Counted from the first letter of the stretch, positions 3,791 to 45,301 are shown. The stretch: DNA of 64,000 nt from an uncultured Candidatus Saccharibacteria bacterium (GCA_964596395.1 CAZQSY010000004.1:9008-73007); one strand, 5' to 3'. Numbers and translations: made by a program. The notes: generated by a model from the letters alone, not told the origin.

Positions 3791-3834
3791 AAACACAGGG
3801 TAGTCCTGTGTATACACAGGACTACCCTGTGTTT
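3791..3834. repeat. Family-E nested palindrome, intergenic copy between AI-2E transporter gene and cysS
   Basis: aaacacagggtagtcctgtgta|tacacaggactaccctgtgttt: perfect 22-bp inverted arms, each arm itself palindromic. Confidence 0.7.
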
Positions 3835-4844
3835 ACGGCTGTTTTAAATTCGTTCCGGTATATGGAAATAAGAGTATATAGAAGACTGATGGTAAGCGGC
3901 CCGACCAGGATTCCCACTGGGCCGAGCAGTGAAATACCTCCCAGAACGGAAAGCAATATGAGAAGCGGGGGAAGATTTATTTTATTTCCCACGATGTAAG
4001 GAGAAAGCAGATTGTCTACTGTTCCGACTATGATGATTGCCCAAAACATGAGTCCCACCGCCTCTGCGGTATTGCCCGAAAGAAACAGGAAGGCAATCGC
4101 CGGCACGGATATTAGGGATGTCCCTATCGTAGGAATCAGCGCGGCAATCACGGCTACCAGGCCCCACAGGGCGGGGTTTGGCACCCCGAATACGGCCAGT
4201 CCTGCGCCCATCAGAATTCCCTGAATCAGGGCAATCAAAAGGTATCCCTTGATGATTCCGTTTACCGCCAGAGAAAGTTTTTCCATGATTCTTTCGTCTT
4301 CGGTATCGGCAAGCGGGGATAGCAACACGAGCGCCCCCTTCCAGCGTGCTCCGTCTTTCAGGAAATAGAACATGGACAAAAGAATCAGGAGGAGGGAGAA
4401 AATCGCTTCCAGGGTGGAGGTGAAAATTTTAGCCAAACTACCCGAGACGACAGAAATGAAACCCGAAATTTTATCGTACAGATTGAAAGAAATATTTTCC
4501 GGCAAAATGTTGTTTACCCAAGTGTTCACCGAGTCAATGAAAGAAAGGGCGTGCACATTCTCTACGATCGAGCTGTAGGCGTTCTGGCTTTGGTTAAAGA
4601 CCATCGCGCCGATGCCGAAAAGCGGAATACCTATGATTAAAATGAAGAACAAGACAGTCAGCAGGGCGGCGAGCCAGCTGGGCAACTTTTTATTGAACCA
4701 CCGATAGATTGGATAAAGAACTATAGAGAAAGAAATGCCAAGCGTCAGCACTATCCAGAAAGGCCGGAAAATAAGAAAAGAAAACACAAACACCGCGGCC
4801 AGCAAAAAGAAGAAAAAATATCTTTCAATTATTTTCGTCTGCAT
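3822..4844 (-). CDS. AI-2E family transporter (PerM-like permease)
   Basis: 340 aa with ~8 TM segments and an AI-2E/UPF0118-like C-terminal region. Confidence 0.65.
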   Translation of the reverse strand: MQTKIIERYFFFFLLAAVFVFSFLIFRPFWIVLTLGISFSIVLYPIYRWFNKKLPSWLAALLTVLFFILIIGIPLFGIGAMVFNQSQNAYSSIVENVHALSFIDSVNTWVNNILPENISFNLYDKISGFISVVSGSLAKIFTSTLEAIFSLLLILLSMFYFLKDGARWKGALVLLSPLADTEDERIMEKLSLAVNGIIKGYLLIALIQGILMGAGLAVFGVPNPALWGLVAVIAALIPTIGTSLISVPAIAFLFLSGNTAEAVGLMFWAIIIVGTVDNLLSPYIVGNKINLPPLLILLSVLGGISLLGPVGILVGPLTISLLYTLISIYRNEFKTAVNTG

Positions 4845-6672: not shown

Positions 6673-6744
6673 TTGTTCCTGATTATAGCACGGACTATGT
6701 AGAATAATTTGCAATTTTTGGGAAAATTGTTTAGTATGATCCGT

Positions 6745-9187: not shown

Positions 9188-9286
9188 CGAAGCCCCTGCA
9201 AATTCTTCGCTTCCCGAGGGTCCCGCTTTGGGGACCTAAAGCGCACCAAAGAAGGGCGCAGGGACGAAAAATTTGCAGGGGCTTCG
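9188..9286 (+). repeat. Family-A palindromic element (conserved ~62-nt core in the loop of a 16-17 bp hairpin) in the trpS leader
   Basis: Core ttcccgagggtcccgctttggggacctaaagcgcaccaaagaagggcgcagggacg is flanked by gaagcccctgcaaatt / aatttgcaggggcttc. It is ~95% identical (reverse orientation) to 39128..39214 inside dus. Confidence 0.7.
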
Positions 9287-13763: not shown

Positions 13764-13800
13764 ATTATAGCAAAATACTTTACTTTAGTCAACTAAAGTA
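13764..13800 (-). promoter_or_regulatory. Consensus sigma70-type promoter (TTGACT-N17-TATAAT on minus strand) with overlapping palindrome, upstream of the yerC-like gene
   Basis: Minus-strand read gives TTGACT (13787-13792), a 17-nt spacer, then TATAAT (13764-13769). Palindrome actttagtTGACtaaagt overlaps the -35. Confidence 0.55.
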
Positions 13801-16379
13801 GATAGATAGGTGTGAATATCCCTTTTGTCTCTCTTCAGCCACAATATATTGCTTTCGAGTTTTTCTATGACTTGCTCTACGGCTCGCTCGGCGCCGGGGG
13901 CGGGATGGGTTCTGAAGAATTTCTTGAATTTGCGCAAGTGCCTTTCTTCGGCGCTTCCGGAAATCGCTTTCATAAATCTGGAGAGCGTGTGTCCGCCTTC
14001 GCCGTACCTCGTGACGAAAGTTTTCCAGTTCCGGGTGATGCATTTGAGCCATGCGTCTCGGCCGAGGGGATTCATTCCGACAGAGGATATTATTCCGGAA
14101 GTATCCTGCGGGCGCACGTGCGAAGACAGCGAAAATTGTGCGGCTTTTCTAAGGATTTCCGGGGAAGAGAAGTTGCCTAAAGCGGCGCCGATCCTGTTTC
14201 TTTCTTCATGCAGCGCTTCTTTTTTGTACATTTTTATAAGCTCTTCATATTCTTTGATTCCGCCGGATTTCGCTACGATGCCGTAAATTGGAGCGCGCAG
14301 GTCCGGGTCAACCCTTTTGCCTTTTTTAATTTTTGCAAAAAGATTTTTGGCTTTTAAAATTGTTTTTTCGTCGCCGGCTTGGCCTAATATTTCTATACAA
14401 AGGGGCCGAAGCATTGAATCAGAAGGGGGTTCGTTTTTTTTCTTACTCCACCCGAGGCGGCGAAAAACAGGGGAGAACAAGCTGATAATTAAACCATCGA
14501 GATTCGCTTCGCTTCCGGTTTTGCAAAAAATTTGCTTGATTCCCCTTATGCCCAGAGCTATCGCGTGCAGGACGGAATAATCACTCTCTCTTTTATACGC
14601 TTTTAAAAATTTCAGAGCTTCGCTCGTTCTTCCGTCGCCAGATTCGGCAAGCGCGAAGAGGTCCCTTATGATTCCCAGGCGGTCCCGCGCGGAGATTTTT
14701 TTATCCCGTACCGGCTTTGCTAATCTGTCGAGCATTTTTTTGGAATAGGCGACTCTGAAAAATCCGCTTTCGCCCGCGTTTATTTTTACAAACTCGGGCT
14801 TGGAGGCCTTGCCTCCAAGCGGAGGCAAGGCCTCCAAGCTCAACTTAGTACTCTGGCTACTAAGCAGTATTTTTGCAGTATTTTTGCCGTCTCCGAAAAC
14901 AATCGGCGTTTGCCAAATTATTTTGTCTTTGTTTTTTCTTTTGGAAATTGGGCTTGAGAAAAATCTGCCCTGCGAAAGATATAAACTTTCACCCTTTATT
15001 TCTGTCTTTATGACCGGGTACCCGGGTTTGGCAGTCCAGTTTTGCATTATTTTTTTTACCGGTTTTCCCGAGATTTTTTCAAATGCTTGCCAGAGGTGCG
15101 CGGTTTCGGTGTTTTTATAGCTATGTTTTTTCAAGTAATAGCGCAGACCGTCTCGAAAATCTTTTTCTCCCAGATATTCGGCCAGCATTCTGATAATACA
15201 GGCGCCTTTTGAATACGATACCTCGTCGAAGATTTCGCCGATTTCGTCGGGGTGATGCACTTTCACTTCTACCGGATGTGTGTTGGCCAATGAATCCAAA
15301 CGGAGTGCTACTCCTAAATCCTGCACCGAAAATTGTGTCCACATATTCCATTCAGGGAAGACCTTTTCCAGCGCCAAATATTCCATATATGAGGCGAATC
15401 CTTCGTTGAGCCACAGGTGTGTCCACCACTCCATAGTCACTAGGTTGCCGAACCACTGGTGGGCAATTTCATGTGCCACGACCAAAGCCACTCTCTGTTT
15501 GTTTGTGAGCGAGGAATTTTTTTCGTCAAAAAGCAGGGCGCTTTCGCGGTAGGTAATGGCGCCCCAGTTTTCCATGGCGCCGGCGGCAAAATCCGGGACA
15601 GCTATCATATCAAGCACGGGCAGGGGGTACTTGATATCAAAATATTTTTCGTAAAAATCCAGCATTTTGGCGGCGCAAGAAAGCGCGAACCCTGCCTGAT
15701 GCTTTTTCTCGGGATGCGTAAAGACGCGCACCGCGACCCCCCGTCTGGTTTTTGTCTGGAGCATATCAAAATCTCCCACAATGAAGGCCAGGAGGTAAGT
15801 GGACATTTTCGGCGTGGGAGAAAATCTTACAATGTCAAAGCCTGCCTCGTGCTCTTTTATTGAAACCGGCAAGGTATTAGAAATCGCCGTTTTGCCTTTT
15901 TCCACCACCAGTGATACCTTGAACACGGCTCTGTGTGCTGGTTCGTCGAAACAAGGGAAAGCCCGGCGCGCGTCGGTGGCTTCGAATTGGGTAGTGGCCA
16001 TGTGGCGTTCTTTGCCGTAAAGCATATACCGGCTGCGATAGAAGCCCCGCATTTTGTCGTTCAGTATGCCTTGAAATATCAACCGTAATTTGGCCGTGCC
16101 AGCTGGTATTTTTTTAGAAAATACAAAAGTCGCGGTTTCCCTTTTTTCGTCGTAAGAAATTTTTTCGGCGAAAAGTTTTTCTGCCAATACCGTGATGCTT
16201 GCCGTCTCAATGTCTATTTCTTTGCTGTGCAGGGTTATCTCCTTTGTCGGCTTCAAGATTTTTATTTTTATCTCCTCTTCGCCTTTGAAGGTGAAGTTCA
16301 GAAGGTCCGGATGCAATTTCAAATCGTACTCCGAGGGGATTATAGACGAGTCAAGTTTTGCGGATTTTTTTTTCTGCAT
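13785..16379 (-). CDS. pepN: Aminopeptidase N (M1 family metallopeptidase)
   Basis: HEIAHQWFGNLVT...WLNEGFA zinc-binding motif and GAMEN-like GAMENWG. Confidence 0.9.
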   Translation of the reverse strand: MQKKKSAKLDSSIIPSEYDLKLHPDLLNFTFKGEEEIKIKILKPTKEITLHSKEIDIETASITVLAEKLFAEKISYDEKRETATFVFSKKIPAGTAKLRLIFQGILNDKMRGFYRSRYMLYGKERHMATTQFEATDARRAFPCFDEPAHRAVFKVSLVVEKGKTAISNTLPVSIKEHEAGFDIVRFSPTPKMSTYLLAFIVGDFDMLQTKTRRGVAVRVFTHPEKKHQAGFALSCAAKMLDFYEKYFDIKYPLPVLDMIAVPDFAAGAMENWGAITYRESALLFDEKNSSLTNKQRVALVVAHEIAHQWFGNLVTMEWWTHLWLNEGFASYMEYLALEKVFPEWNMWTQFSVQDLGVALRLDSLANTHPVEVKVHHPDEIGEIFDEVSYSKGACIIRMLAEYLGEKDFRDGLRYYLKKHSYKNTETAHLWQAFEKISGKPVKKIMQNWTAKPGYPVIKTEIKGESLYLSQGRFFSSPISKRKNKDKIIWQTPIVFGDGKNTAKILLSSQSTKLSLEALPPLGGKASKPEFVKINAGESGFFRVAYSKKMLDRLAKPVRDKKISARDRLGIIRDLFALAESGDGRTSEALKFLKAYKRESDYSVLHAIALGIRGIKQIFCKTGSEANLDGLIISLFSPVFRRLGWSKKKNEPPSDSMLRPLCIEILGQAGDEKTILKAKNLFAKIKKGKRVDPDLRAPIYGIVAKSGGIKEYEELIKMYKKEALHEERNRIGAALGNFSSPEILRKAAQFSLSSHVRPQDTSGIISSVGMNPLGRDAWLKCITRNWKTFVTRYGEGGHTLSRFMKAISGSAEERHLRKFKKFFRTHPAPGAERAVEQVIEKLESNILWLKRDKRDIHTYLSTLVD

Positions 16380-17943: not shown

Positions 17944-18351
17944 ATGGAAACCGGATTGAACGAAAAAATTATCGAGCCCGCATGGGCTTTGTCTTCATCC
18001 TTATCTGAATGGGTGTGGAGCGTTCTTTATTTTATCATCGCTTTTTCTTTCATCTCTGTTTTTCAGAAATTTTATAAAAAGGAGTTACCCGGCAAGGTCG
18101 CCTTGCCGTTTTTGCTGAACTTGATTTTTAATTTAATACTTGTGCCTCTGCAGGTGCTTTCGAATGGAAGCATATTCGCGTCTATCGATGCGGGGCTGGT
18201 CTTGATTACCTTAGTATGGGCGACAGCGGTCGTCGCCCGGCATCTGAAGTGGGTTGCCTTGGTAAATATTCCTTACCTTTTGTGGATATGTTACGTGCTG
18301 GCGGTTGAAATAATCAAATTCATTAATTATCGAGCCATCGTCATCCAGTAA
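17944..18351 (+). CDS. Hypothetical small membrane protein (Trp-rich, 4 TM)
   Basis: Hydrophobic 135-aa ORF, well packed between neighbours. Confidence 0.4.
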   Translation: METGLNEKIIEPAWALSSSLSEWVWSVLYFIIAFSFISVFQKFYKKELPGKVALPFLLNLIFNLILVPLQVLSNGSIFASIDAGLVLITLVWATAVVARHLKWVALVNIPYLLWICYVLAVEIIKFINYRAIVIQ

Positions 18352-19106
18352 TGGAAACCGAAACATATCAAATAAAAACCCGTGATTTTGAGGGGCCGTT
18401 TCATCTCTTACTCTCGCTTATTCAGGAGAAGAAATTTTTTATCAACGACCTTTCGCTTTCACAAATAACCGAGGATTATCTCAACTACATAAAGCAAATC
18501 GGCGAGATTGATACCCGGCAGGTTTCCGGCTTTGTCGCCGTGGCGGCTACGCTGATTCTGATAAAATCCAAATCGCTACTGCCTTCGCTTAATCTTTCGG
18601 CGGAAGAGGAAGGAGACATCAAAAATCTGGAAGACCGGCTGAAGCTGTATGAATTTTATACCGAGCTCTCGGCGGGCGTGAAAAAGATTTTCGGCAAAAG
18701 AATGATTTTCGCCCCGCTTCCGCGGAAAAACGCTTTCTCTATGTTCATGCCCGACCAGAAAATTACCAGGGAAAACATGGCGAGCATAATCTTGGAGGTT
18801 TTGGGCAGGGTTCCGAAAAAAGAATTTCTTCCCGAAGTGGAGGTGAAAAAAGTCATCAGTTTAGAGGAAATGATTTCGAAGCTTTCAGAAAGAATAGAAA
18901 AAAGTTTGGAATTTAATTTCAAAGATTTTGCCTGCCTGCCGGCAGGCAGGCCGGGTCAATCCATAACGAAAGAAGAAAAGGTGGTTGTAATTATCAGTTT
19001 TCTTGCTATGCTAGAACTCGTGAGACAAGGTTTGCTTCACGTTACCCAGAGTGAGAATTTCGAAGATATCATTATTCAAAAACAACAAAATGGAACTCCA
19101 GCATAA
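18351..19106 (+). CDS. scpA: Segregation and condensation protein A
   Basis: FEGPFHLLLSLIQ N-terminus typical of ScpA. Carries an in-frame copy of the 20-bp palindrome CCTGCCTGCCGGCAGGCAGG at 18931-18950. Confidence 0.8.
   Translation: METETYQIKTRDFEGPFHLLLSLIQEKKFFINDLSLSQITEDYLNYIKQIGEIDTRQVSGFVAVAATLILIKSKSLLPSLNLSAEEEGDIKNLEDRLKLYEFYTELSAGVKKIFGKRMIFAPLPRKNAFSMFMPDQKITRENMASIILEVLGRVPKKEFLPEVEVKKVISLEEMISKLSERIEKSLEFNFKDFACLPAGRPGQSITKEEKVVVIISFLAMLELVRQGLLHVTQSENFEDIIIQKQQNGTPA
18931..18950. repeat. Family-C 20-bp perfect palindrome CCTGCCTGCCGGCAGGCAGG (copy inside scpA, in frame)
   Basis: Identical 20-mer at 22291-22310. Close variants at 44726-44743 and 34514-34534. Confidence 0.7.
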
Positions 19107-19695
19107 ATTAGAGGCGATACTTTTTTGGAAGGGCGAGCCGGTACCCATAAAGAAGCTCTCTGAACTTTCGGGCTCCAGCATAGCAGAAACGCGCGACGCG
19201 CTTGCGAAGCTGAAAGAAAATTTGCGAGGAAGAGGCGTAGTGCTTTTGCATTTAGAAAAACCTGCCCACAATGCAACAGAGCGCGATGCAGGCGGGGAAG
19301 ACGAAGTGGCATTAGGCACTGCGCCGGAGCTTTCAGACCTAATACTTGACTTACAGAAAGAAGAATTCAATCGCGAGCTCTCCAGAGCGTCGCTTGAGAC
19401 GCTGTCCATAATTTTATACAAAGACGGGGCCAGCCGTTCGCTTATTGATTATATTCGGGGCGTCAATTCTAGTTTCACCCTGCGGGCCCTTTCTATCCGG
19501 GGGCTTATAGAAAAAACACCCGACCCGGAAGACGCCAGGCGCTTTATTTACAAACCGACTTTTGACCTGCTCTCTTATATGGGTATCAGGTCGAAAGAAG
19601 AACTGCCTGATTACGAAAAAGTCGGCGCGTCGGTGCGTTCTGTCGAAGAAAATTTGGCCGAAGAAACGAAAGATGGAGCCGAAACAGCGTCCTAA
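19090..19695 (+). CDS. scpB: Segregation and condensation protein B
   Basis: ScpB winged-helix N-terminus (LEAILFWKGEPVPIKKL). Start at MELQHKL (19090), overlapping the scpA end. Confidence 0.8.
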   Translation: MELQHKLEAILFWKGEPVPIKKLSELSGSSIAETRDALAKLKENLRGRGVVLLHLEKPAHNATERDAGGEDEVALGTAPELSDLILDLQKEEFNRELSRASLETLSIILYKDGASRSLIDYIRGVNSSFTLRALSIRGLIEKTPDPEDARRFIYKPTFDLLSYMGIRSKEELPDYEKVGASVRSVEENLAEETKDGAETAS

Positions 19696-20593
19696 CTACC
19701 TTCTGTTCTTTGTGTTCGCGGTGATTCTCTTTGAGAGCGTGTTTTTTTTGCACGGGAATCGCAAATGGGAAGCGGTATTTCTGGCCGAAGAAAAAAATAA
19801 GGAAGTCATACAAAGCGCCCTAGACGACGCGCGTTTGGAAGCGAAGGCGGTTTCGGTTTATGATTTTACTTCCAAAGAAAAAATTTATGGCAGAAACGAC
19901 GATGTAGCTATGCCCATAGCTTCACTCGTCAAGACGATGCTTGTCGCTGTGGCTGTAAACGCTATTGGTGGAGAAAGTTCGATCTCGATTTCCCAGGCCG
20001 CAATTTTAGAGCAGGGGGATTACGGTTTTTTCGTGGGCGAAAAGTTCGCGGTTCGAGACTTGGCTCGGCTGACTCTAGTAGGGTCATCTAACGACGGCTC
20101 TTACGCCTTGGCGGAAAACACTTCGGGTATTTTGGAAAAAATGAACAAAAAGGCGCAGAAAATCGGAATGACCCGCGCGATGTTTTCGAATTATACCGGC
20201 CTAGACGTATCGGATGGCCTAAGTTTTGCCCCGAGTTCGCTGGCTTCAGCCGAAGATGTGAACCAAATGTCTTATTACGCCTCGCGGGGAAATTCGGAAA
20301 TTTTTTCCGCTACTGTCTTGCCCGAAATTACCGTTGTTTCCGAATCCGGCTACGCGCATACCATTAAAAACACCAACATTATCCTTGGTAAAATCCCGGG
20401 AATTATTTTTTCTAAAACCGGCTACACCCCGCTGGCGGGCGGTAATCTTTCGATAATTTATAAGAATCAGTACGGGCGCGAAATTGCCGTTGCCGTCCTC
20501 GGCTCAACTTTTGACGGCAGATTTAAAGACGTAGAAAACATAGTCAATTTATTGTACAATTTGGACTATGGAAGCTCAAACCGGCGAAATTAG
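19673..20593 (+). CDS. D-alanyl-D-alanine carboxypeptidase (serine-type, PBP5-like)
   Basis: SxxK active site (ASLVKTM), SxN (SSND) and KTG (KTGYT) motifs. Signal/TM N-terminus. Start at MEPKQRP. Confidence 0.75.
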   Translation: MEPKQRPNYLLFFVFAVILFESVFFLHGNRKWEAVFLAEEKNKEVIQSALDDARLEAKAVSVYDFTSKEKIYGRNDDVAMPIASLVKTMLVAVAVNAIGGESSISISQAAILEQGDYGFFVGEKFAVRDLARLTLVGSSNDGSYALAENTSGILEKMNKKAQKIGMTRAMFSNYTGLDVSDGLSFAPSSLASAEDVNQMSYYASRGNSEIFSATVLPEITVVSESGYAHTIKNTNIILGKIPGIIFSKTGYTPLAGGNLSIIYKNQYGREIAVAVLGSTFDGRFKDVENIVNLLYNLDYGSSNRRN

Positions 20594-22280: not shown

Positions 22281-22330
22281 TTCTCTAATTCCTGCCTGCC
22301 GGCAGGCAGGCGCGCGAATAGGCGAATAAG
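22281..22330. repeat. 28-mer repeat tctctaattc|gcgcgaataggcgaata interrupted by a family-C palindrome insertion
   Basis: The uninterrupted copy at 1463-1492 reads tctctaattcgcgcgaataggcgaata. Here the same sequence carries ctgcctgccggcaggcagg inserted after tctctaattc. Confidence 0.65.
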
Positions 22331-22371: not shown

Positions 22372-23139
22372 ATGAAAATGATCGTTCAAAATTTGGCCAC
22401 GGAATACGAAGATGAGGGGGAGGGAAAAACCTTGCTTTTTTTGCACGGATGGCAAAGCAATCTGCACACTTTCGACCCCTTAGTGAATTCCTTGAGGGAT
22501 TCACTAGAGAAAACGCACAGGTTCGTGCGCCTTGATTTGCCGGGTTTTGGCGGGAGCGAAAGGCCGAGGGAGGATTGGGACTTGGACAAATATGTCTATT
22601 TCGTTTCTGATTTTGTAAAAAAAATGAATCTAGATGTATACGCGCTAGTCGGGCACTCGATGGGCGGACGGATAATTATAAAAGGCGTTTCGGAAAATAT
22701 TTTGAAAACCGAGAAAATAGTGCTAATTTCTTCAGCCGGCATCGCCAAGAGGAAAACTTTCCGCAACCGTTTATTAAAGTTTCTGGCGAAAACCGGCCGG
22801 ATGGTCACGTGCATTCCGCCGTTTTATTTCTGGCGGGAGGGATTGCGCCGAAAAATGTACCAAAAAATCGGAAGTCGAGATTACCTTTCTGCCGGCGCCA
22901 TGCGGGGGACTTTCGTTCGGGTAATAAACGAAGATCTTTCTATAAACGCCCAAAAAGTTAATTCTCCGGCGCTGCTTGTCTGGGGCGAGAATGACACAGA
23001 AACGCCCCTTTCTGATGGAATGCGGCTCTCAAAAATGATTGCCGGTTCGGAGCTTAATGTTTTAAAAGGTTGCGGACATTTCGTGCATGAAGAAAAAGCA
23101 CAAGAGGTGGGAGATATCGTGGAAAAATTCTTATGTTAA
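22372..23139 (+). CDS. Alpha/beta hydrolase fold protein
   Basis: LLFLHGWQSN and nucleophile elbow GHSMGG. -10 TATAAT upstream at ~22353. Confidence 0.75.
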   Translation: MKMIVQNLATEYEDEGEGKTLLFLHGWQSNLHTFDPLVNSLRDSLEKTHRFVRLDLPGFGGSERPREDWDLDKYVYFVSDFVKKMNLDVYALVGHSMGGRIIIKGVSENILKTEKIVLISSAGIAKRKTFRNRLLKFLAKTGRMVTCIPPFYFWREGLRRKMYQKIGSRDYLSAGAMRGTFVRVINEDLSINAQKVNSPALLVWGENDTETPLSDGMRLSKMIAGSELNVLKGCGHFVHEEKAQEVGDIVEKFLC

Positions 23140-24623
23140 AAAATATATTCAACAGATTTATTTCTAAATACAGCTTGCGTTATCCTAGGTCGATAGCGTA
23201 TATGCTGCAGGCGAGCGAATACAAACCGGTTCCGTATCTCAAATGGTGGTTGAGGGTAGAAGATTTTTGCCGGGTGGAAAAAAGAAAGAGTTTGGTAAAA
23301 ACCCAAAATGCGAAAATCTTCCTTTCGTTTTCCTGGCTGATTTACCTCGCTTCGTATGCCGCCATTCTGGGCGTTTTGGTTTTTGCAAATTTCGATTATA
23401 AATACGCCGCCGTGGCGGCCATGGCGCTTCTGGCTCCTTATATTCTAGCTTTCGGAGTTTTGCTTTTGGTTTTTGCCATGAAAATTTTTTATCTGCCCAA
23501 AATGCATTTTTTGATTAAAAAAAGAACTGCGGAGCTTGAAAAACACAAGGGCTTGAAAATCGGCATTGCCGGGAGCTTCGGCAAAACGACTATGCGCGAA
23601 ATATTGAAGACCGTGCTTTCCGCCGGTAAAAAAGTCGCTTCGCCGGAGAAAAATTATAATACGCTGACGGGTATCAGCAATTTCATTAAGACGTTAAAAG
23701 GAGACGAAGAAATTTTAATCTTTGAACTTGGCGAATATTACAAAGGGGACATAAGAGAGATGTGCGAATTTGTGCATCCGCAAATCGGGATAATCACCGG
23801 AGTAAATGAAGCGCACTTGGAGAAATTCAAGAATCTGGATACAACCGCGAGCACGATTTTTGAACTAGCTGATTGGCTTGAGGAAAATAAAAAAAACACA
23901 GGGGAACCCTGTGAAAATTTTACACAGGGTTCCCCTGTGTTGTACATAAACGGCGAAAACGAACCGGCAAAAAGTCGCGCCCAGTCGAAGGATTTTGTCT
24001 ATTCAAGGAGCGGCTTGGATGGTTTGCGGGTTTCGAGCGCACATGCTGGGCTCGAAGGCACCAGTTTTACTCTGGAGTATGAGGGTAAAAATTTTGAGTT
24101 TAATTCAGGACTCCTCGGCTTGCACCAAGTCGGCCCGCTTTGCGCGGCGGTGCATCTGGGTCTATGTCTAGGAATAAAGATAAGTGACCTGCAAAAAGGA
24201 GTGGCCGAAACGAAACCATTCGAGCATCGGTTAGAGCCAAAGACCCTCGCCGGCGGAGTAACGATGCTGGATGACAGCTATAACGGCAACCCTGACGGGG
24301 TTAAGGTGGTGATAGAATTTTTGGCTTCGCTTAAAAGCCGCCGCCGGTTTTACGTTACTCCCGGATTGGTAGAAATGGGACCGAGGACCGAAGAAGTGCA
24401 TAAAGAAATCGGCAGGGAACTCGCGCGAAGCGGAATAGAAAAAATTGTTTTGGTAAAAAACTCGGTTACGCCTTATATTGAAGCAGGTCTGAAAGAAGAG
24501 AATTTCGCGGGCGAAGTGATATGGTTTGAAGACAGCTTAAAAATGCTTTCGGCCTTGCCTCATTTGACCGTTTCGGGTGATATAGTATTATTGCAGAATG
24601 ACTGGCCCGACCAATACTACTAA
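23133..24623 (+). CDS. murF: Mur ligase family protein, likely UDP-MurNAc-tripeptide--D-Ala-D-Ala ligase, with unusual N-terminal TM extension
   Basis: Mur ligase P-loop GIAGSFGKTT, central and C-terminal domains, and the gene sits next to ddl. ~130-aa N-terminal segment with 2-3 TM helices. In-frame family-E palindrome at 23895-23941. Confidence 0.7.
   Translation: MLKNIFNRFISKYSLRYPRSIAYMLQASEYKPVPYLKWWLRVEDFCRVEKRKSLVKTQNAKIFLSFSWLIYLASYAAILGVLVFANFDYKYAAVAAMALLAPYILAFGVLLLVFAMKIFYLPKMHFLIKKRTAELEKHKGLKIGIAGSFGKTTMREILKTVLSAGKKVASPEKNYNTLTGISNFIKTLKGDEEILIFELGEYYKGDIREMCEFVHPQIGIITGVNEAHLEKFKNLDTTASTIFELADWLEENKKNTGEPCENFTQGSPVLYINGENEPAKSRAQSKDFVYSRSGLDGLRVSSAHAGLEGTSFTLEYEGKNFEFNSGLLGLHQVGPLCAAVHLGLCLGIKISDLQKGVAETKPFEHRLEPKTLAGGVTMLDDSYNGNPDGVKVVIEFLASLKSRRRFYVTPGLVEMGPRTEEVHKEIGRELARSGIEKIVLVKNSVTPYIEAGLKEENFAGEVIWFEDSLKMLSALPHLTVSGDIVLLQNDWPDQYY
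23895..23941. repeat. Family-E nested palindrome (aacacaggggaaccctgtg-aaaatttt-acacagggttcccctgtgtt) in frame inside murF
   Basis: Nearly perfect ~23-bp inverted arms. A sibling copy (arms acacagggtagtcctgtg) is intergenic at 3791-3834. Here it encodes NTGEPCENFTQGSPVL. Confidence 0.7.
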
Positions 24624-25994: not shown

Positions 25995-26177
25995 CCTGTT
26001 TCTTTTGCCTCTTTTTTGTGCTATATATAAAGCGCAGCCGAGACCGGTTGCGGGTTCTTTTAGTTCGGAATTTCTTTGCTTAAGTGGAAATTCCGTCAGG
26101 CGCGATTTCTTTTTCGTTTTTGCGCCTGTATGTTTCCGCCCGCGTTTTGATACCGGTTTAAAGTGTGGGCGGAGCAT

Positions 26178-26276
26178 GGGCCTATTGTTCTGTGGTAGAA
26201 TAGCGGTCTCCACCCCGTCGCTCGCGAGCGACAGGGTCCAAGACCGTTGCCGGAAGTTCGATTCCTCCACGGCCCA
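26178..26276 (+). pseudogene. Degenerate tRNA-Trp-like sequence with a 24-nt hairpin inserted in the anticodon loop, directly abutting the GIY-YIG ORF start
   Basis: D-arm gttc/tgtggta/gaat, anticodon stem gcggt + loop ctcca(hairpin ccccgtcgctcgcgagcgacaggg)..accgt, T-arm ggaag-TTCGATT-cctcc. Acceptor pairs only 5/7. Ends 2 nt before the ATG at 26279. Confidence 0.5.
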
Positions 26277-26278
26277 CA

Positions 26279-26538
26279 TGTTTTATGTTTACGTTTTGAA
26301 GAGTAAGAAAGACAATAAGCTGTATTTCGGGTATACTGCTGACCTGAAAAAACGTTTATCTGAACACAAGAGAGGGAACGTAGAAAATACTAGCCATAGA
26401 TTGCCCGTTGAGCTTGTTTATTACGAATCTTATAGAAATATAGATGATGCGAAGGAGCGGGAAAAGAGTTTCAAAAATAGCGGTTCTGTGTATAATGGAT
26501 TGGTAAAAAGAATTAAGAGAAGTATGATGGGAGCTTAG
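26279..26538 (+). CDS. Small GIY-YIG nuclease (COG2827/UPF0213-type URI-domain protein)
   Basis: MFYVYVLKS...KLYFGYTADLKKRLSEHKRG matches the GIY-YIG core. Paralogous to 44802..45059. The TAG stop lies inside the 5' end of tRNA-Trp. Confidence 0.75.
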
Positions 26539-26602
26539 TTAAGTGGTATAACTGCGGTCTCCAAAACCGCGGTCAAGGGTCCGATTCCCTTAGCTCCCGC
26601 CA
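26529..26602 (+). tRNA. tRNA-Trp (anticodon CCA), CCA encoded
   Basis: Acceptor gggagct/agctccc, D-arm gtta-agtggta-taac, anticodon stem gcggt/accgc with loop cTCCAaa, T-arm aaggg/ccctt, discriminator g then cca. Overlaps the last 10 nt of the GIY-YIG ORF. Confidence 0.8.
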
Positions 26603-26690
26603 GAGACATTTAGGTCTCCACCCCGTCGTTCGCGAACGACGGGGTCCAAAACCGCGGTCAAGGGTCCGATTCCCTCATCGCCCGCTAGAT
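26603..26690 (+). pseudogene. Partial duplicate of the tRNA-Trp 3' portion carrying the same anticodon-loop hairpin
   Basis: aggtctcca + hairpin ccccgtcgttcgcgaacgacgggg + tccaaaaccgcggtcaagggtccgattccct... matches the tRNA-Trp 3' half with altered acceptor. No 5' half present. Confidence 0.5.
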
Positions 26691-38392: not shown

Positions 38393-39435
38393 TGCGGAAT
38401 TTCTGGATAAAATTAAATAGACCTTTTTTCTGCCTGGCGCCGATGGCCGATGTTACTGATTGCGCTTTCAGAAAGGTTATAGCCAATTATGGCAAACCGG
38501 ATGTGTTCTGGACGGAATTTGTTTCAGCTGATGGCTTGGCACACCCGAAGGCCAGAGGAAAGCTTTTGATTGACTTAAAATTTTCCAAAGACGAGCACCC
38601 GATAGTGGCGCAGATATTTGGTGCTAACCCTGAAAACATCAAGGAAGCTGCCGTCTTGTGCCGAGAGCTCGGCTTTGACGGGGTAGATATAAACATGGGT
38701 TGCCCCGACCGAACGATTGAAAAACAAGGCGCCGGAGCGGCCATGATTAAAAACCCAAAACTCGCGCGCGAAATTATACGAGCAGCCAAAGAAGGGGCAG
38801 AGGGTTTGCCCGTGTCGGTGAAGACGCGCATTGGCTACAGCAAGGTTGAGATTGAAACCTGGCTGCCGGAAATATTGAAAGGAAATTTGGCGGCGCTTAC
38901 GATTCACTTGAGGACCAGGAAAGAAATGTCTGATGTACCGGCGCATTGGGAACTTATGAAAAGAATCGTTGAGATTCGCGATGAAATTAGCCCGGAAACT
39001 TTACTTATTGGCAACGGCGATGTGGTGAGTTTAGAAGATGCAAGAGCAAAAACCAAAGAGTATGGCTGTGATGGAGTAATGCTAGGCAGAGCCATTTTCG
39101 GAAATCCGTGGCTGTTCAGAAACCTCACCAGTACTGTTTTTTCGTCCCTGCGCCCTCCTTCGGTGCGCTTCAGGTCCCCAAAGCGGGACCCTCGGGAACA
39201 AAAAAACAGCACTGGCGAGGTTTCTTTAAAGGAAAAGCTGAAGGTTTTGATAGAACACACGAAACTTTTTGAAAAAGAGTTCAAGGGTATAAAAAGTTTT
39301 GACGTTATGAAGAAGCATTACAAAGCATACGTGAACGGTTTCGATGGCGCGAAGGAGCTTCGCATAAAACTCATGGAAACCAAAAACGTCAGAGACGTTG
39401 AAAAAATAGTGAAGGATTTTCTGGAAAAGATGTGA
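38392..39435 (+). CDS. dus: tRNA-dihydrouridine synthase with an in-frame palindromic-element insertion
   Basis: CLAPMADVTD, FMN-binding TIM-barrel motifs, GNPWLF. Residues STVFSSLRPPSVRFRSPKRDPREQKNSTGEVS are encoded by the family-A element at 39128-39214. Confidence 0.85.
   Translation: MRNFWIKLNRPFFCLAPMADVTDCAFRKVIANYGKPDVFWTEFVSADGLAHPKARGKLLIDLKFSKDEHPIVAQIFGANPENIKEAAVLCRELGFDGVDINMGCPDRTIEKQGAGAAMIKNPKLAREIIRAAKEGAEGLPVSVKTRIGYSKVEIETWLPEILKGNLAALTIHLRTRKEMSDVPAHWELMKRIVEIRDEISPETLLIGNGDVVSLEDARAKTKEYGCDGVMLGRAIFGNPWLFRNLTSTVFSSLRPPSVRFRSPKRDPREQKNSTGEVSLKEKLKVLIEHTKLFEKEFKGIKSFDVMKKHYKAYVNGFDGAKELRIKLMETKNVRDVEKIVKDFLEKM
39128..39214 (-). repeat. Family-A palindromic element copy inside dus (reverse orientation, read through in frame)
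   Basis: The reverse complement matches the trpS-leader core at ~95%. It is flanked by its own inverted arms cagtactgttttttt / aaaaaacagcactg, which differ from the trpS-copy arms but stay complementary. Confidence 0.7.
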
Positions 39436-41019: not shown

Positions 41020-41610
41020 ATGAAAATACTTTTTATTCGTCACGCGGAGACAGAGACAAACGTGAAAGAGCTTACTCACAAGACAGGTGACCCCGTTGGA
41101 TTGACTGAACTCGGGAAAAAGCAGGCACAGGATTTGGGCAAAATATGCAAAAAGAACCAAGTTGAAATTATTTTTACTTCTCCTGAACAAAGAGCCGTTG
41201 AAACCGCGGATATAATAGCTAAAGAATTAAACCTAAGGCTGGAGGTTTTGAAAGGATTCGCGGAAAGAAATTGGGGAGAGTGGGAGGGCAGGTCTTGGCC
41301 AGAGATAGAGAAGGTTCTTGCGCCTATGAGCCTGGAGGAGCGTTATAATTTTGTTCCGCCAGAGGGCGAATCTTGGAGGGAGATGGAAGCAAGGCTGAAG
41401 GAAGGCTTGAGCGCCATAACTAATCAACAGTATTCTAGCGTAGCAGCAGTAACTCACGAGGGGGCCTTGCGAGGTTTGATGCCCCTGTTGCATAACTCCC
41501 CGAGAGATAGTAGTTTTAAATATCATTTTGATAACGCTTCGGTATCCGTTTTTGAATATCAAGATGGCATATTCACAGAGTTGATAAATGGAGTGGATAA
41601 AACTAACTGA
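41020..41610 (+). CDS. Histidine phosphatase family protein (phosphoglycerate mutase-like)
   Basis: RHAETE catalytic motif near the N-terminus. Start at MKILFIRHAE. Confidence 0.65.
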   Translation: MKILFIRHAETETNVKELTHKTGDPVGLTELGKKQAQDLGKICKKNQVEIIFTSPEQRAVETADIIAKELNLRLEVLKGFAERNWGEWEGRSWPEIEKVLAPMSLEERYNFVPPEGESWREMEARLKEGLSAITNQQYSSVAAVTHEGALRGLMPLLHNSPRDSSFKYHFDNASVSVFEYQDGIFTELINGVDKTN

Positions 41611-42667
41611 AAAAAATCACAAAGAGGCAATAAAAAAGGCCATCGCCGTTTTAAGGGACGGCGGTTTGGTTGTTTACCCGACCGAGACCTGCTACGGCAT
41701 AGGCGCGGATGCTACGAATCAAAAGGCGGTAAATAAACTTTTGGCGTACAAGACTATGCGCGGGGATAAGCCCATTTCGGTCGCGGTGACAGGCAAAATT
41801 ATGGCCGAGAAATACGTGCATATAAACAAAACCGCCGAAAATATTTACGACAACTTTCTGCCCGGGCCGATAACGGTCGTATCAAAAGGGAAAGGGAAAC
41901 TGGCCAAAGGCGTGGAAAGCCCGACCGGTACGCAGGGCATACGCGTACCCGATTACTCTTTTGTGTTTGAGCTTTTAAAAAAATACAAAAGGCCGATTAC
42001 CGCTACTTCGGCGAATGCTTCATACAAGAAAACACCGTACGCGATAGACGATATTTTGAAAAATATTTCTGAGCGCCAGAAAAAACTGATTGGCCTAATA
42101 ATTGACGCTGGCAAATTGCCTAAAAGAAAACCCAGCACGGTGATTGATACCACGCTCGAAGGAATACACATTGTACGCGAAGGAAGCATAAAAATTTCAA
42201 GCCCTGATATTTTTCAATCAAGTTCCTTGGAAGATACCGAGCGGTTTGTTCATGAAATTTACGGCAAACTGGGAAAAAATTTGGGAAAGAAAAACATTGT
42301 TTTTCTTTTACAGGGGGAGCTCGGGGCGGGCAAGACGCATTTCGCGAAATATTTGGCGAAAAAACTCGGCGTCAAGGAAGTGGTGACTTCGCCGACTTTT
42401 ACGTTGTGCAACGAGTACGCGGGAAAAGCGGGCGGGAAAAAAGTGAAATTCCATCATATAGACACGTACAGAATGTATAATCCCGAAGAAATTGATGCGT
42501 TGAAACCTGAAGAAATTTTCAGAACGCCGAATGTGGTGGCGATTGAATGGGCGAACAAGGTGTATGGGCACATAGGTAAACATTTGGGGAACGCGGTGGT
42601 AGTAGAAATTTTAATCAGCGCGCCGGGGGAGACGGAAAGGGTGTTTGAGTATAAAATAAAAAGATGA
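41588..42667 (+). CDS. Fused TsaC/Sua5/YrdC (threonylcarbamoyl-AMP synthase) - TsaE (YjeE P-loop ATPase) protein
   Basis: N-terminal YrdC domain (VVYPTETCYGIGADA, KxR). C-terminal TsaE domain (GELGAGKTHFAKYLAKKLGV...SPTFTL). Immediately upstream of tsaD. Confidence 0.8.
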   Translation: MEWIKLTEKNHKEAIKKAIAVLRDGGLVVYPTETCYGIGADATNQKAVNKLLAYKTMRGDKPISVAVTGKIMAEKYVHINKTAENIYDNFLPGPITVVSKGKGKLAKGVESPTGTQGIRVPDYSFVFELLKKYKRPITATSANASYKKTPYAIDDILKNISERQKKLIGLIIDAGKLPKRKPSTVIDTTLEGIHIVREGSIKISSPDIFQSSSLEDTERFVHEIYGKLGKNLGKKNIVFLLQGELGAGKTHFAKYLAKKLGVKEVVTSPTFTLCNEYAGKAGGKKVKFHHIDTYRMYNPEEIDALKPEEIFRTPNVVAIEWANKVYGHIGKHLGNAVVVEILISAPGETERVFEYKIKR

Positions 42668-42679
42668 AAAGCAACCTTC

Positions 42680-42758
42680 GCGGCAGCATGCTTTTGCTCG
42701 GGTCCTCGGGTCGCCCTGCTGGGCTCAACCAGACCAGCTCGCAAAAGTATGCTGCCGC
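42680..42758. repeat. Family-B palindromic element (18-bp terminal inverted repeats gcggcagcatgcttttgc / gcaaaagtatgctgccgc), intergenic copy
   Basis: Fills most of the tsaCE-tsaD spacer. A second copy at 42995-43091 shares both termini and inner blocks tcgggtcctcgggtcg and ctcaaccagaccagctcg. Confidence 0.75.
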
Positions 42759-42770
42759 TTCGGCTTAAAC

Positions 42771-43970
42771 ATGAAAAAGATTTACACGTTAGGCATAGAT
42801 ACTTCCTGCGACGACACTTCGGTGGCGGTTTTAGAGAACGACAAGGTACTCGCGAATGTGGTTTCTTCGCAAATTGACGTGCATAAAGAATGGGGCGGGG
42901 TGGTGCCGAACCTAGCGCGCCGGGAACACGAGAGATTAATTGGCGGGTGTATTGAGCTCGCTCTAAAGCGCGCGGGTTTTTTGCAATCGCCTCTGCGGCT
43001 GCATGCTTTTGCTCGGGTCCTCGGGTCGGCCGCACATGAAGTTTTGAATGGTGCGGCCTCAACCAGACCAGCTCGCAAAAGCATGCTGCCGTTTCGGCTA
43101 GGAAGTACGCCTGCGACGAGTTTCGGTGTGTTAGTTAAAAAATTAGACGCCATAGCAGTGACGCATGGCCCGGGGCTCGCACCTGCGCTTGAAGTGGGCG
43201 TGGCCTGGGCAAAAAGAATCGCCTTGGAAAATAATTTGCTTCTTATTGCCGTGAATCATATGGAAGGCCACACGCTTTCGGTATTTTTGAAAAATAAAAA
43301 CGGGAAAAATTATTCGGGGCTGAAGCAGGCAAAGTTTCCTTTTCTCGCGCTGAACGTTTCGGGTGGGCATACAGAACTCGCGTGGGTAGAGAGGTTGGGA
43401 GAATATAAAATTCTGGGGCAGACGCTGGATGACGCTGCCGGCGAATGCTTTGACAAGGTGGCGCGGATGCTTGATTTGGGATACCCGGGCGGGGAGCTGA
43501 TTTCTAAATTCGCTGAAGGCGCTAACCGGGATAAATATCCTCTGCCTCGGCCGATGCTCTGGAGCAAAGATTATAATTTTAGTTTTTCCGGCCTCAAGAC
43601 CGCTTGCCTGTATAATACGAACAAATTGAAAGAAAAACTCGGCAAAGATTTCGCCAAAATTATTCCCGATTACTGCGCTTCCGTGCAGGAAGCGATTGTT
43701 GACTGCCTAGTCATAAAAACCGCCAAAGCTGTAAAAGAATTCAAGCCGAAAATGCTCGTCTTGGGCGGGGGAGTCGCCGCGAACTCGCGCCTGCGCGCGA
43801 GAATCCGCAAAGAGGCGAAAAATTTGGGTGTACCGGTGTATTTTCCCGATAAGAAATTTACTTCCGACAACGCGGCCATGATAGCGCTCGCCGGCTATCA
43901 CAAATTTCTCCGTGGAGAATTCTCCGACCCGAAAAGATTAGAGCGCGTGCCGTCACTTAGATTGGGGTAG
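42771..43970 (+). CDS. tsaD: tRNA N6-adenosine threonylcarbamoyltransferase TsaD (Kae1/Gcp) with in-frame palindromic-element insertion
   Basis: GIDTSCDDTSVAV, HMEGH and GGVAAN motifs. There are ~45 extra residues (LQSPLRLHAFARVLGSAAHEVLNGAASTRPARKSMLPFRLGSTPATSF) between the first helix and GPGL, where homologs have about 8. Confidence 0.85.
   Translation: MKKIYTLGIDTSCDDTSVAVLENDKVLANVVSSQIDVHKEWGGVVPNLARREHERLIGGCIELALKRAGFLQSPLRLHAFARVLGSAAHEVLNGAASTRPARKSMLPFRLGSTPATSFGVLVKKLDAIAVTHGPGLAPALEVGVAWAKRIALENNLLLIAVNHMEGHTLSVFLKNKNGKNYSGLKQAKFPFLALNVSGGHTELAWVERLGEYKILGQTLDDAAGECFDKVARMLDLGYPGGELISKFAEGANRDKYPLPRPMLWSKDYNFSFSGLKTACLYNTNKLKEKLGKDFAKIIPDYCASVQEAIVDCLVIKTAKAVKEFKPKMLVLGGGVAANSRLRARIRKEAKNLGVPVYFPDKKFTSDNAAMIALAGYHKFLRGEFSDPKRLERVPSLRLG
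42995..43091 (+). repeat. Family-B palindromic element copy inserted in frame within tsaD
   Basis: Termini gcggctgcatgcttttgc ... gcaaaagcatgctgccg are retained. The interior differs from the intergenic copy by a ~14-nt indel. Confidence 0.75.
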
Positions 43971-44664: not shown

Positions 44665-44715
44665 GATTTTAATTGTATCAAATTTGTGCTATATTTTCTC
44701 TGTGTTTTGTGGTAT

Positions 44716-44790
44716 TGGGAGATCGCCTGCCTGCGCAGGCAGGTCTAACGGTAGTCACCTCATCGGCGACCCGCCGAAAAGGCGGGGACA
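44716..44790 (+). pseudogene. tRNA 5' fragment (acceptor 5' strand + D-arm) interrupted by a family-C palindrome and followed by a 36-nt double-hairpin element
   Basis: tgggagatcg[cctgcctgcgcaggcagg]tctaacggtag parallels the tRNA-Gln start tgggagatcgtctaatggtag. It is followed by tcacctcatcggcgacccgccgaaaaggcggggaca, which is repeated at 45178-45213. Confidence 0.5.
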
Positions 44791-44801
44791 AAGATTAATC
44801 C

Positions 44802-45059
44802 ATGTATTATACTTACATATTACAAAGTTTAAAAAACGAACGAATGTATGTTGGAAGTACAGATGATTTAAAAAGAAGAGTTTCTGAGCACAATTCAGGT
44901 ATAGGTGGCTTGTATACCAAAAACAATCGACCCTTTAAGTTAATATACTACGAAGCGTACATTGAGAAAAAAGACGCAAGTCGGGCAGAAAAGTTTTACA
45001 AAACAGGATACGGTAGAGAAGTTTTGAATGGTAAATTAGAGGATTATTTGAAAAAATGA
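44802..45059 (+). CDS. Small GIY-YIG nuclease (COG2827/UPF0213-type URI-domain protein)
   Basis: MYYTYILQSLKNERMYVGSTDDLKRRVSEHN matches the GIY-YIG core. Paralog of 26279..26538. Ends 17 nt before tRNA-Gln. Confidence 0.75.
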   Translation: MYYTYILQSLKNERMYVGSTDDLKRRVSEHNSGIGGLYTKNNRPFKLIYYEAYIEKKDASRAEKFYKTGYGREVLNGKLEDYLKK

Positions 45060-45075
45060 TGTTCGCGAGCAGTGC

Positions 45076-45146
45076 TGGGAGATCGTCTAATGGTAGGACT
45101 CCTCCCTTTGAAGGAGGCTATCTTGGTTCGAATCCAAGTCTCCCAG
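45076..45146 (+). tRNA. tRNA-Gln (anticodon TTG) embedded in a 14-bp perfect extension of the acceptor helix
   Basis: Acceptor tgggaga/tctccca, D-arm gtct-aatggta-ggac, anticodon stem cctcc/ggagg with loop cTTTGaa, T-arm cttgg-TTCGAAT-ccaag. Flanks ttcgcgagcagtgc (45062-75) and gcactgctcgcgaa (45146-59) are exact reverse complements. Confidence 0.8.
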
Positions 45147-45173
45147 CACTGCTCGCGAATTAAAAATTTTTAA

Positions 45174-45262
45174 GTGGTAGTCGCCTCATCGGCGACCCGC
45201 CGAAAAGGCGGGGACAGTGGCCTTTGAAGCCATTAATTTTGGTTCGAATCCAAATCTCCCAG
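45174..45262 (+). pseudogene. tRNA 3' fragment (D-loop remnant + 36-nt element + anticodon arm TTG + T-arm + acceptor 3' strand)
   Basis: gtggtag + tcgcctcatcggcgacccgccgaaaaggcggggaca + gtggc-cTTTGaa-gccat + tttgg-TTCGAAT-ccaaa + tctccca g. The 5' acceptor strand and D-stem are absent here but present in the 44716-44790 fragment. Confidence 0.5.
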
Positions 45263-45301
45263 CCCTGGGAGTAAGTCGCGGGAAAATGAAATATTTTTTA
45301 T

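Follow-up and report, generated by a model that had tools for sequence, protein, structure and literature searches.

The tsaD gene on a 64,000-nt stretch of DNA from an uncultured bacterium (CAZQSY010000004.1:9008-73007; this whole stretch is referred to below as the window) carries within its reading frame, and is directly preceded by, a copy of a palindromic element that we designate family A. Family A is a previously undescribed repeat family of tiny-genome Parcubacteria/Paceibacterota; its copies are found between genes as well as within unrelated housekeeping genes, and they combine a strongly conserved asymmetric core with stems that differ in sequence between lineages and retain their pairing. 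Selection, or a very recent common origin, acts on this nucleotide core and on the pairing. We regard it as moderately probable that family A is a low-copy, selfish hairpin element resembling the Rickettsia palindromic elements (RPEs) and the intragenic repetitive extragenic palindromic (REP) sequences, and that it is recognized as a DNA hairpin by some enzyme.

Two copies of family A in front of and within tsaD

An earlier note on this DNA had described a palindromic element that occurs once in the spacer between tsaCE and tsaD and a second time inside tsaD. Both copies are indeed present, with a homology that reaches slightly past the ends given in that note (Table 1). Copy 1 starts 7 nt past the tsaCE stop codon and ends 5 nt short of the tsaD ATG; the two copies (93 and 112 nt) are located on the same strand, 315 nt apart. 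The internal blocks that they had been said to share proved to be exact: GCATGCTTTTGCTCGGGTCCTCGGGTCG (28 nt; 42686-42713 and 43001-43028) and CTCAACCAGACCAGCTCGCAAAAG (24 nt; 42724-42747 and 43058-43081) each occur exactly twice in the window, with none expected from 100 shuffles. A BLAST comparison of the copies gave one alignment of 34 nt (97% identity) and another of 42 nt (95%), far beyond chance. The main difference between them resides in the apical hairpin, which is 19 nt longer in copy 2 (GGCCGCAC-15 nt-GTGCGGCC) than in copy 1 (GCCC-tgct-GGGC).

For each of the copies a single long hairpin is predicted, whichever strand is folded and whether it is treated as RNA or as DNA (z between -4.5 and -6.9). 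The RNA folding energies amount to -50.5 kcal/mol for copy 1 and -58.5 kcal/mol for copy 2 (z = -5.7 and -6.0), those of the DNA to -28 and -32 kcal/mol. The stems comprise 18 bp including one G-T pair in copy 1 and 17 bp including one mismatch in copy 2. Hence, the pairing of the 18-bp terminal inverted repeats proposed before is real; these termini are, however, not the conserved part of the family, which is formed by the internal blocks instead. A covariance model of the family (see below) scores copy 1 with 70-73 bits (E about 1e-18) and copy 2 with 94-100 bits, and neither this model, run with its filters off, nor a short-word BLAST revealed a third copy in the 64 kb.

Copy 1 showed no site resembling a promoter or a terminator, and we therefore rejected either function for it. 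Copy 1 is open in the tsaD frame (KDEKQPSRQHAFARVLGSPCWAQPDQLAKVCCRFGLN-MKK), no ATG, GTG, or TTG codon is present ahead of the annotated tsaD start (42660-42773), and no Shine-Dalgarno-like sequence is visible between the 3' arm of copy 1 and the tsaD ATG; the hairpin may have an effect on the initiation of tsaD translation. In the comparison locus L031 (we number such loci L and the homologous proteins P), the ortholog of tsaCE contains the Pfam domains Sua5_yciO_yrdC and TsaE.

Copy 2 as a secondary insertion in TsaD

As the earlier note had claimed, copy 2 is in frame with tsaD and free of stop codons: its 111 nt (42989-43099) are read through as 37 codons (PLRLHAFARVLGSAAHEVLNGAASTRPARKSMLPFRL), although three of its six frames contain stops. 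It begins about 224 nt into the gene, at codon 75, and not 237 nt into it as had been stated. An example of a peptide encoded by the element is AFARVLGSAAHEVLNGAASTR.

The TsaD protein of the window has 399 amino acids, versus about 345-370 amino acids for most of the 119 other homologs listed, the best of which is only 65% identical to it; the nearest named relative stems from Candidatus Magasanikbacteria. In an alignment of 24 sequences, 49 extra residues are present between the motifs RAGFLQ and VKKLDAIAV. At the same site, 20 of the 23 aligned homologs carry no insert, while three (P0034, P0039, and P0061) possess unrelated ones. Only 37 of the 49 extra residues are contributed by the repeat; the segment GSTPATSFGVL, which follows it, is a lineage-specific extension of the same variable TsaD loop. 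Hence, the proposed addition of about 45 residues holds as an insertion and not as a count. Because the protein is longer than its relatives and the segment is absent from its closest orthologs (at most 65% identical), copy 2 is, judged from these sequence comparisons, a derived, secondary insertion in tsaD and not an ancestral protein feature.

Characterized TsaD/Kae1 proteins had been said to have only a short linker at this position; in the Thermotoga maritima TsaD, 13 residues correspond to 65 residues (58-122) of the window protein. An AlphaFold2 model of the latter (mean pLDDT 87.4) reaches values above 90 over most of the chain and falls below 50 for residues 76-115, and it can be superimposed on solved TsaD structures with TM-scores of 0.92-0.94 and an rmsd of about 2 Å. 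The TsaD fold is thus predicted to be intact around a disordered insert.

The TsaD protein P0061 (Parcubacteria group bacterium Gr01-1014_18; L031 1690-1803) carries in the same loop a compound hairpin, GTAGGGGC...GCCCCTAC, with two internal hairpins and translated as VGAHLHVRPTLSSGEEQGRHSGLPLH. This insert is GTAG-tagged (GTAG...CTAC), REP-like, and different from family A; therefore, the TsaD loop took up hairpin DNA more than once.

Family A in other Parcubacteria

We searched metagenome contigs with a 19-nt core pattern and then built a covariance model from six copies. Among 15 metagenome matches to the 19-mer, nine lacked the 3' half of the core and were chance matches. The true copies lie in frame within polA (L007, which is the same as L012 and L018, and L010), in frame but on the opposite strand in a gene for a PcrA/UvrD-like helicase (L005, the same as L011), where they give a clean insert of 29 amino acids between PcrA residues 349 and 351, and between genes in L015. 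The covariance model added polA copies in forward (L023, L024, and L025) and in reverse orientation (L026, L027, and L029), as well as an in-frame copy in uvrC (L025 18959-19029). A scan of genome contigs returned only the polA copy again (L018) along with chance matches in GC-rich genomes; in viral contigs there was one match to the 5' core and none to the 3' core. A six-frame peptide query of 5.8 billion proteins found only three proteins already implied, short peptides failing E-value thresholds at such a database size, and a profile of the polA peptide EFSRVLGSPAQ..QPDQL, run against 1.84 billion representatives, found only a polA fragment and unrelated tandem-repeat proteins.

All genic copies, in tsaD, polA, uvrC, and the pcrA/uvrD-like gene, are in frame and free of stop codons, in both orientations, and they are located in loops or inter-domain linkers. 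As in the RPEs, copies of one family thus reside in frame in unrelated housekeeping genes and also between genes (copy 1 and L015), and this is the case in independent JGI, ENA, and NCBI assemblies. The dispersal of the element that had been described as proliferation is accordingly real, but its scale is modest: two copies in the 64 kb of the window and one or two per locus of about 20 kb elsewhere.

A conserved asymmetric core within covarying stems

Each copy consists of an outer stem of 12 to about 25 bp that is lineage-specific, an asymmetric core (TTTKCTCGGGTCCTCGGKTC ... CCAGACCAGCTCNNAAA) predicted to form short helices and internal loops, and a variable apical hairpin. Outside the window (L007, L010, L011, and L015), outer and apical stems are wholly different in sequence, yet their pairing is retained and the core is unchanged. 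Across 13 copies, 94% of the cells of the alignment are paired, and 10 of the 23 base pairs have changed on both sides; one pair, for instance, is G-C in six copies and U-A in six. None of 500 shuffles reached the covariation score, and slid controls paired to 26-46%. The alignment used was fitted to the model, which favors pairing; a structure specified by hand agreed with this result on a MAFFT alignment. Covariation neither supports nor contradicts the two short inner helices, since they are invariant.

The 36 core nucleotides are 86-100% identical (mean 93%) across lineages and orientations, the loci found through PolA homology included, the 5' half of the core being subject to a search bias considered below. 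In the same lineages, polA is 71-80% identical at the DNA level and 43-58% at third codon positions, which is near saturation. Within the polA genes of L007, L010, and L023, the element is 94-95% identical versus 78-83% for its flanks (Fisher p 1e-3 to 1e-6). The outer 15 positions, on the other hand, show a mean identity of about 55% between copies and of 7-27% between the window and polA copies. Hence, the arms are lineage-specific, covarying stems, and the asymmetric core is the conserved part of family A. One and the same element DNA is read as different peptides (FARVLGS..QPDQL, ..TRPARK, RAGLVE..TRGPE, and FASWSG..DPRTRA), and the constraint therefore acts on the nucleotides and not on the peptide. 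The outer stems contain G-T pairs on the forward strand; a strand preference derived from G-U pairing was inconsistent, since an advantage of 4-6 kcal/mol for the reverse strand was seen in L007, L011, and L015 and was missing in the two copies of the window.

The polA linker is a hot spot for hairpin cassettes

We sorted 120 PolA homologs of the L007 protein (75-99% identity) by the peptide signature of the linker that connects the 5'-3' exonuclease domain with the rest of the protein. Family A was present in forward orientation in 48 of them (28 long and 20 short versions) and in reverse orientation in 25. Another palindrome, family C (ALRRSHSILEGQ..SSEYSSEH), was found in 28 homologs, family D in three, and family B in a single one; 13 had no recognized signature, some of these linkers looking empty or decayed, and in two the anchors were not found. 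The DNA of L024 to L030 confirms the signature assignments.

In Paceibacterota/Nomurabacteria-like genomes the polA linker is hypervariable. Only 48 of 118 PolA nearest neighbors share their cassette type, and there are PolA proteins with 95-96% identity outside the linker that nevertheless contain different hairpin families. P0125 and P0130, nearly identical outside the linker, carry family A in one case and family C in the other; their genes (L010 and L032) stem from one sample, have closely similar flanking DNA, and possess cassettes with coincident boundaries.

The polA gene of L023 contains two further in-frame inserts (around 5900-6700) that are absent from L007 and L010: a 30-nt insert with the perfect palindrome CCGCCAGAGGCG-AAT-CCGCCTCTGGCGG and a GC-rich segment of 21 nt. 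L028, a Parcubacterial locus, has at 18523-19841, some 6 kb downstream of its polA, what resembles a diversity-generating retroelement: a bAvd-like gene and, behind it, a gene for a reverse transcriptase that was split into two calls.

Other palindromes in the window

RPE-like behavior extends to a second palindromic family, family B, which is represented in the window by an intergenic copy and by an in-frame copy in dus (Table 1) whose outer stems are completely different. The family-B core is also present in frame in uvrC of L025 (19392-19449) at 82% identity, and its peptide signature occurs in the polA linker of P0185.

Three additional long, perfect palindromes are in frame within open reading frames (ORFs) of the window. 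One (14798-14839) is read as SLEALPPLGGKASKP in an ORF of 864 amino acids (13785-16379); one (23895-23941) is read as NTGEPCENFTQGSPVL in the ORF 23133-24623 and has a relative at 3791-3834; and one (18930-18951) is read as ACLPAGRP in the ORF 18351-19106, with the same motif recurring at 22291-22311 and 44723-44746. Two stand-alone GIY-YIG nuclease ORFs of 85-86 amino acids (26278-26538 and 44802-45059) adjoin intact tRNAs, Trp-CCA and Gln-TTG (regions 26170-26690 and 44700-45270), and each of them has in its flanks further copies of its tRNA, partial or interrupted, into which GC-rich palindromes are inserted, such as ACCCCGTCGCTCGCGAGCGACAGGGT at the position of the anticodon loop. The arrangement resembles a cassette that targets a tRNA and supplies the replacement for it.

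Table 1. Features of the window and of the comparison loci. Positions without a locus number refer to the window.
Feature	Position	Strand	Remarks
Family A, copy 1	42674..42766	+	fills the tsaCE-tsaD spacer; core plus 12-bp stem 42686-42752
Family A, copy 2	42989..43100	+	inside tsaD, sense orientation; core plus 12-bp stem 43001-43086
5' half-core TTTTGCTCGGGTCCTCGGGTCG	42692..42713	+	identical at 43007-43028 (copy 2); no or almost no variation among 13 copies, which represent at least 9 lineages
3' half-core CTCAACCAGACCAGCTCGCAAAA	42724..42746	+	identical at 43058-43080 (copy 2)
tsaD	42771..43970	+	399 aa; host of copy 2; homology, AlphaFold2 model, TM-score
Extra tsaD codons, about 12 (GSTPATSFGVL)	43100..43135	+	after copy 2; absent from copy 1, so not part of the repeat
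tsaCE (tsaC-tsaE fusion gene)	41588..42667	+	upstream of copy 1
Family B	9188-9286		intergenic; 61-nt core, 95% identical to 39128-39215
Family B	39128-39215		reverse orientation, in frame in dus; linker after TIM barrel; peptide TSTVFSSLRPPSVRFRSPKRDPREQKNST
polA linker cassette	L007 4744-4887		
polA linker cassette	L024 10934-11086		
polA linker cassette	L025 10907-11041		
polA linker cassette	L026 10910-11032		
polA linker cassette	L027 10000-10158		
polA linker cassette	L028 10919-11074		
polA linker cassette	L029 10946-11092		
polA linker cassette	L030 10910-11014		
polA linker cassette	L032 ~3904-4060		

Known classes of elements and RNAs

No match of the element to an Rfam family was obtained at the gathering threshold, nor at E values up to 10 for positions 42600-43200. 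No GTAG or CGTC tag was found by alignment at either end of the family-A core or of its stems, and the scanned ORFs of the window and the loci retrieved for comparison contained no autonomous insertion sequence (IS) with family-A ends. Several candidates were set aside after the structure had been inspected. An archaeal bulge-helix-bulge intron would have two 3-nt bulges around 4 bp, whereas the internal loops of family A are 3x5 and 3x1; an integron attC site would require R''/R' boxes, which are missing from the ends; and the signal recognition particle RNA, other known RNAs, and self-cleaving ribozymes were discarded as they gave no Rfam match.

Origin and maintenance of the element

In the explanation that we favor, that of a selfish hairpin element, family A would comprise low-copy, non-autonomous hairpins that have spread through the Parcubacteria/Paceibacterota. 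The element's movement or copying would take place at the level of DNA, the mobile form probably being a single strand folded into a hairpin; a trans-acting enzyme would recognize the invariant asymmetric core, and nothing but pairing would be required of the stems. Copy 2 would have been inserted secondarily into the variable TsaD loop between helix alpha-1 and the strand preceding the GPGL motif and, because both window copies share the same lineage-specific stem, the copying presumably took place within this lineage, with one of the two serving as the template for the other or a single source giving rise to both. Genic insertions would survive only if they are in frame, free of stops, and situated in a loop or linker, and the survivors would be translated straight through as a disordered surface peptide. 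That they are translated is suggested by the maintenance of frame and openness through many length and frame variants and by the intact fold predicted for TsaD.

Several observations weigh against this explanation. Copy number is low, and with only 315 nt between them the two window copies could be accounted for by a local duplication. A scan of 20 small ORFs of the window brought up the two 85-amino-acid GIY-YIG proteins but no gene for a transposase, a REP-associated tyrosine transposase (RAYT), or an IS200-like protein, and no such gene figures among the Pfam domains annotated in related loci totaling about 220 kb; inspection of the junctions of copy 1, copy 2, and the polA and helicase inserts revealed no target-site duplications. 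Part of the family was found by means of the exact core 19-mer, so that the conservation of the 5' half-core is biased, the copies of L024 to L029 being free of this bias. A selfish element should decay, and yet the polA copies of L007, L010, and L023 are conserved above their coding flanks, unpaired loops included, which fits host-level selection or a very recent replacement better than passive junk. Finally, random insertion followed by tolerance explains poorly that unrelated hairpin families occupy one polA site with coincident boundaries.

These last two features, the excess of conservation over the flanks and the exchange of cassettes at identical boundaries, are the reason why we retain two further explanations, each of which we deem unlikely but worth keeping in mind. 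According to the first, family A is a structured module selected by the host: as a DNA cruciform, a single-strand hairpin, or a protein-binding site it would serve the cell, perhaps as a signal connected with genes of replication or repair, and it would persist through purifying selection, the extra protein segment being a side effect that is tolerated. The conservation of the core far above synonymous-site identity, in both orientations and all reading frames, would be expected from such a module, as would the fact that about 100 of the 120 polA genes of the clade carry some recognized linker hairpin signature. The host genes moreover cluster in nucleotide-excision repair and tRNA modification (polA, uvrC, pcrA/uvrD, tsaD, and dus; cf. 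PMC3733652), a bias that is in part one of sampling, since the fetched flanks are polA neighborhoods. A host function is harder to reconcile with the lineage-specific occurrence of the inserts in tsaD, uvrC, the helicase gene, and dus, all absent from orthologs, with the substitution of unrelated hairpin sequences for one another in polA, and with the visible decay of many polA copies; nor is the orientation relative to transcription fixed, and neither a promoter or terminator at copy 1 nor an Rfam match points to a function.

The second invokes interchangeable cassettes, placed by a dedicated, site-directed exchange whose substrate would be folded DNA and whose targets would be fixed sites in genes for replication, repair, and tRNA modification. 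Selection would then maintain the core because a conserved Parcubacterial protein recognizes it. The clearest case for it is the polA linker, in which families A (in both orientations), B, C, and D replace one another, the boundaries coinciding between strains from one sample. If it is true, such a process would amount to a new DNA-hairpin recombination or homing system, or to a structural signal used by the host.

Somewhat more doubtful still is a passive origin, by template switching during replication or by the repair of hairpin-induced breaks off other hairpins; either window copy would then have arisen from the other through local ectopic copying. That the window copies are close together, agree in strand, and have a lineage-specific stem in common fits such a process, and so does the lack of target-site duplications at the junctions inspected and of a transposase in the ORFs and loci scanned; unrelated cassettes that swap at the same boundaries look as if an existing palindrome were a fragile or repaired site. 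It leaves unexplained, however, why a 36-nt asymmetric core, unpaired nucleotides included, is 86-100% identical across distant lineages, and how the same core spread to unlinked genes in different organisms.

We consider it very improbable that the hairpin is an intervening sequence removed at the RNA level, for instance by a double-strand-specific RNase and ligation, to yield a TsaD protein without the insert. A long perfect stem would bring the junctions together, small palindromes are present in tRNA-like sequences of the window, and bacteria of the Candidate Phyla Radiation (CPR) are known for insertions in their rRNA genes. Excision would, on the other hand, lift the constraint on the reading frame, whereas the genic copies in five genes, with many length variants, keep their frame without stops, and variants whose 3' half is in a different frame have compensating length changes. 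In addition, both orientations occur in mRNAs, and no ribozyme or intron family matched at E values up to 10. That there is no element at all, and that what was seen is a TsaD loop of ancestral origin, a fortuitous similarity, or an artifact of assembly, has next to no probability: the loop is variable in other CPR bacteria, as the three unrelated inserts at the same place illustrate, but this explanation is already contradicted by the orthologs without the segment, by the exact blocks of 24-28 nt with none expected, and by the same element in independent assemblies from three sources.

Significance

With our data, palindromes that code for protein are known not only from Rickettsia and a small number of REP-rich phyla but also from the CPR, whose very small genomes had been considered repeat-poor. 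They explain part of the variation in protein length and of the spurious low-complexity segments in these bacteria, which matters for annotation, alignment, and structure prediction. With its reading in several frames and two orientations, a core conserved above synonymous sites, and a turnover of cassettes between co-occurring strains, the family constitutes an unusually clean natural experiment, and two old questions become testable: how such elements move, and why they prefer polA, uvr, and tRNA-modification genes.

Comparison with known palindromic elements

RPEs are palindromes of 100-150 bp that are abundant in intergenic and coding DNA of Rickettsia, often as in-frame fusions (PMC10969869; PMC1779305). 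Family A and its companions resemble them as palindromic repeats of about 100-150 bp that form a long hairpin, with several families per genome and copies both between genes and in frame in unrelated housekeeping ORFs; the inserts can likewise be accommodated by a folded, functional protein, and some of those at orthologous sites are old (PMC10969869; PMC1779305). The analogy to RPEs drawn in the earlier note is consequently upheld by the in-frame and intergenic copies, by the second family in dus, and by the loop and linker sites. The likeness is one of behavior: family A occurs in Patescibacteria, and its membership in the RPEs by descent is very unlikely because its hosts are Parcubacteria. 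Its copy number is also much lower in the DNA surveyed, with two family-A and two family-B copies in 64 kb versus tens of RPEs per genome of about 1.2 Mb. Family-A DNA is, moreover, read in several frames and both orientations, it conserves an internal asymmetric core while its stems covary, and different hairpin families swap at one fixed polA site.

The spread of palindromes in frame into essential genes had been called the hallmark of RPEs; in-frame palindromes are not unique to Rickettsia, since Di Nocera et al. described intragenic REPs in several phyla, concentrated in uvrABC, uvrD/rep, polA, recBCD, and tRNA pseudouridine synthase genes, and doubted that this distribution is fortuitous (PMC3733652). 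REPs and REPINs are hairpin repeats thought to be mobilized as single-stranded DNA by a trans-acting HUH tyrosine transposase, without target-site duplication. Family A resides in the same classes of genes (PMC3733652), and in another Parcubacterium (L031) the TsaD loop that holds copy 2 in the window is filled by a GTAG...CTAC compound hairpin. Unlike REPs, family A has no GTAG/CGTC tag and forms a single hairpin of 70-115 nt instead of 20-40-nt units or dimers; no RAYT was found in the 64 kb and the roughly 220 kb of loci, and the element is low-copy versus hundreds of REP copies. The earlier note knew of no description of such elements in this lineage, and we likewise found none for CPR/Patescibacteria in the literature.

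MITEs (miniature transposable elements with inverted repeats) such as ERIC, Correia, RUP, and BOX are also small, non-autonomous inverted-repeat hairpins that are sometimes fused in frame to ORFs (PMC10969869). Family A differs from them in that it has no target-site duplication, its terminal repeats vary between lineages, and no parent IS with matching ends was identified in the DNA scanned. The GC clusters of yeast mitochondria, GC42 in particular, offer a further parallel: they are GC-rich hairpins in an AT-richer genome whose stems are conserved above synonymous sites, and they undergo rapid turnover, merger, and shuffling, with recombinational exchange at conserved flanks (PMC4478555). 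They are, in contrast to family A, organellar and mostly intergenic, with putative target-site duplications reported (PMC4478555), and the loops are what varies most in GC42, whereas the unpaired core is the most conserved part of family A. By its behavior, family A is RPE-like; judged by the defining features of these classes, it is not a REP or a MITE, and very probably not an RPE.

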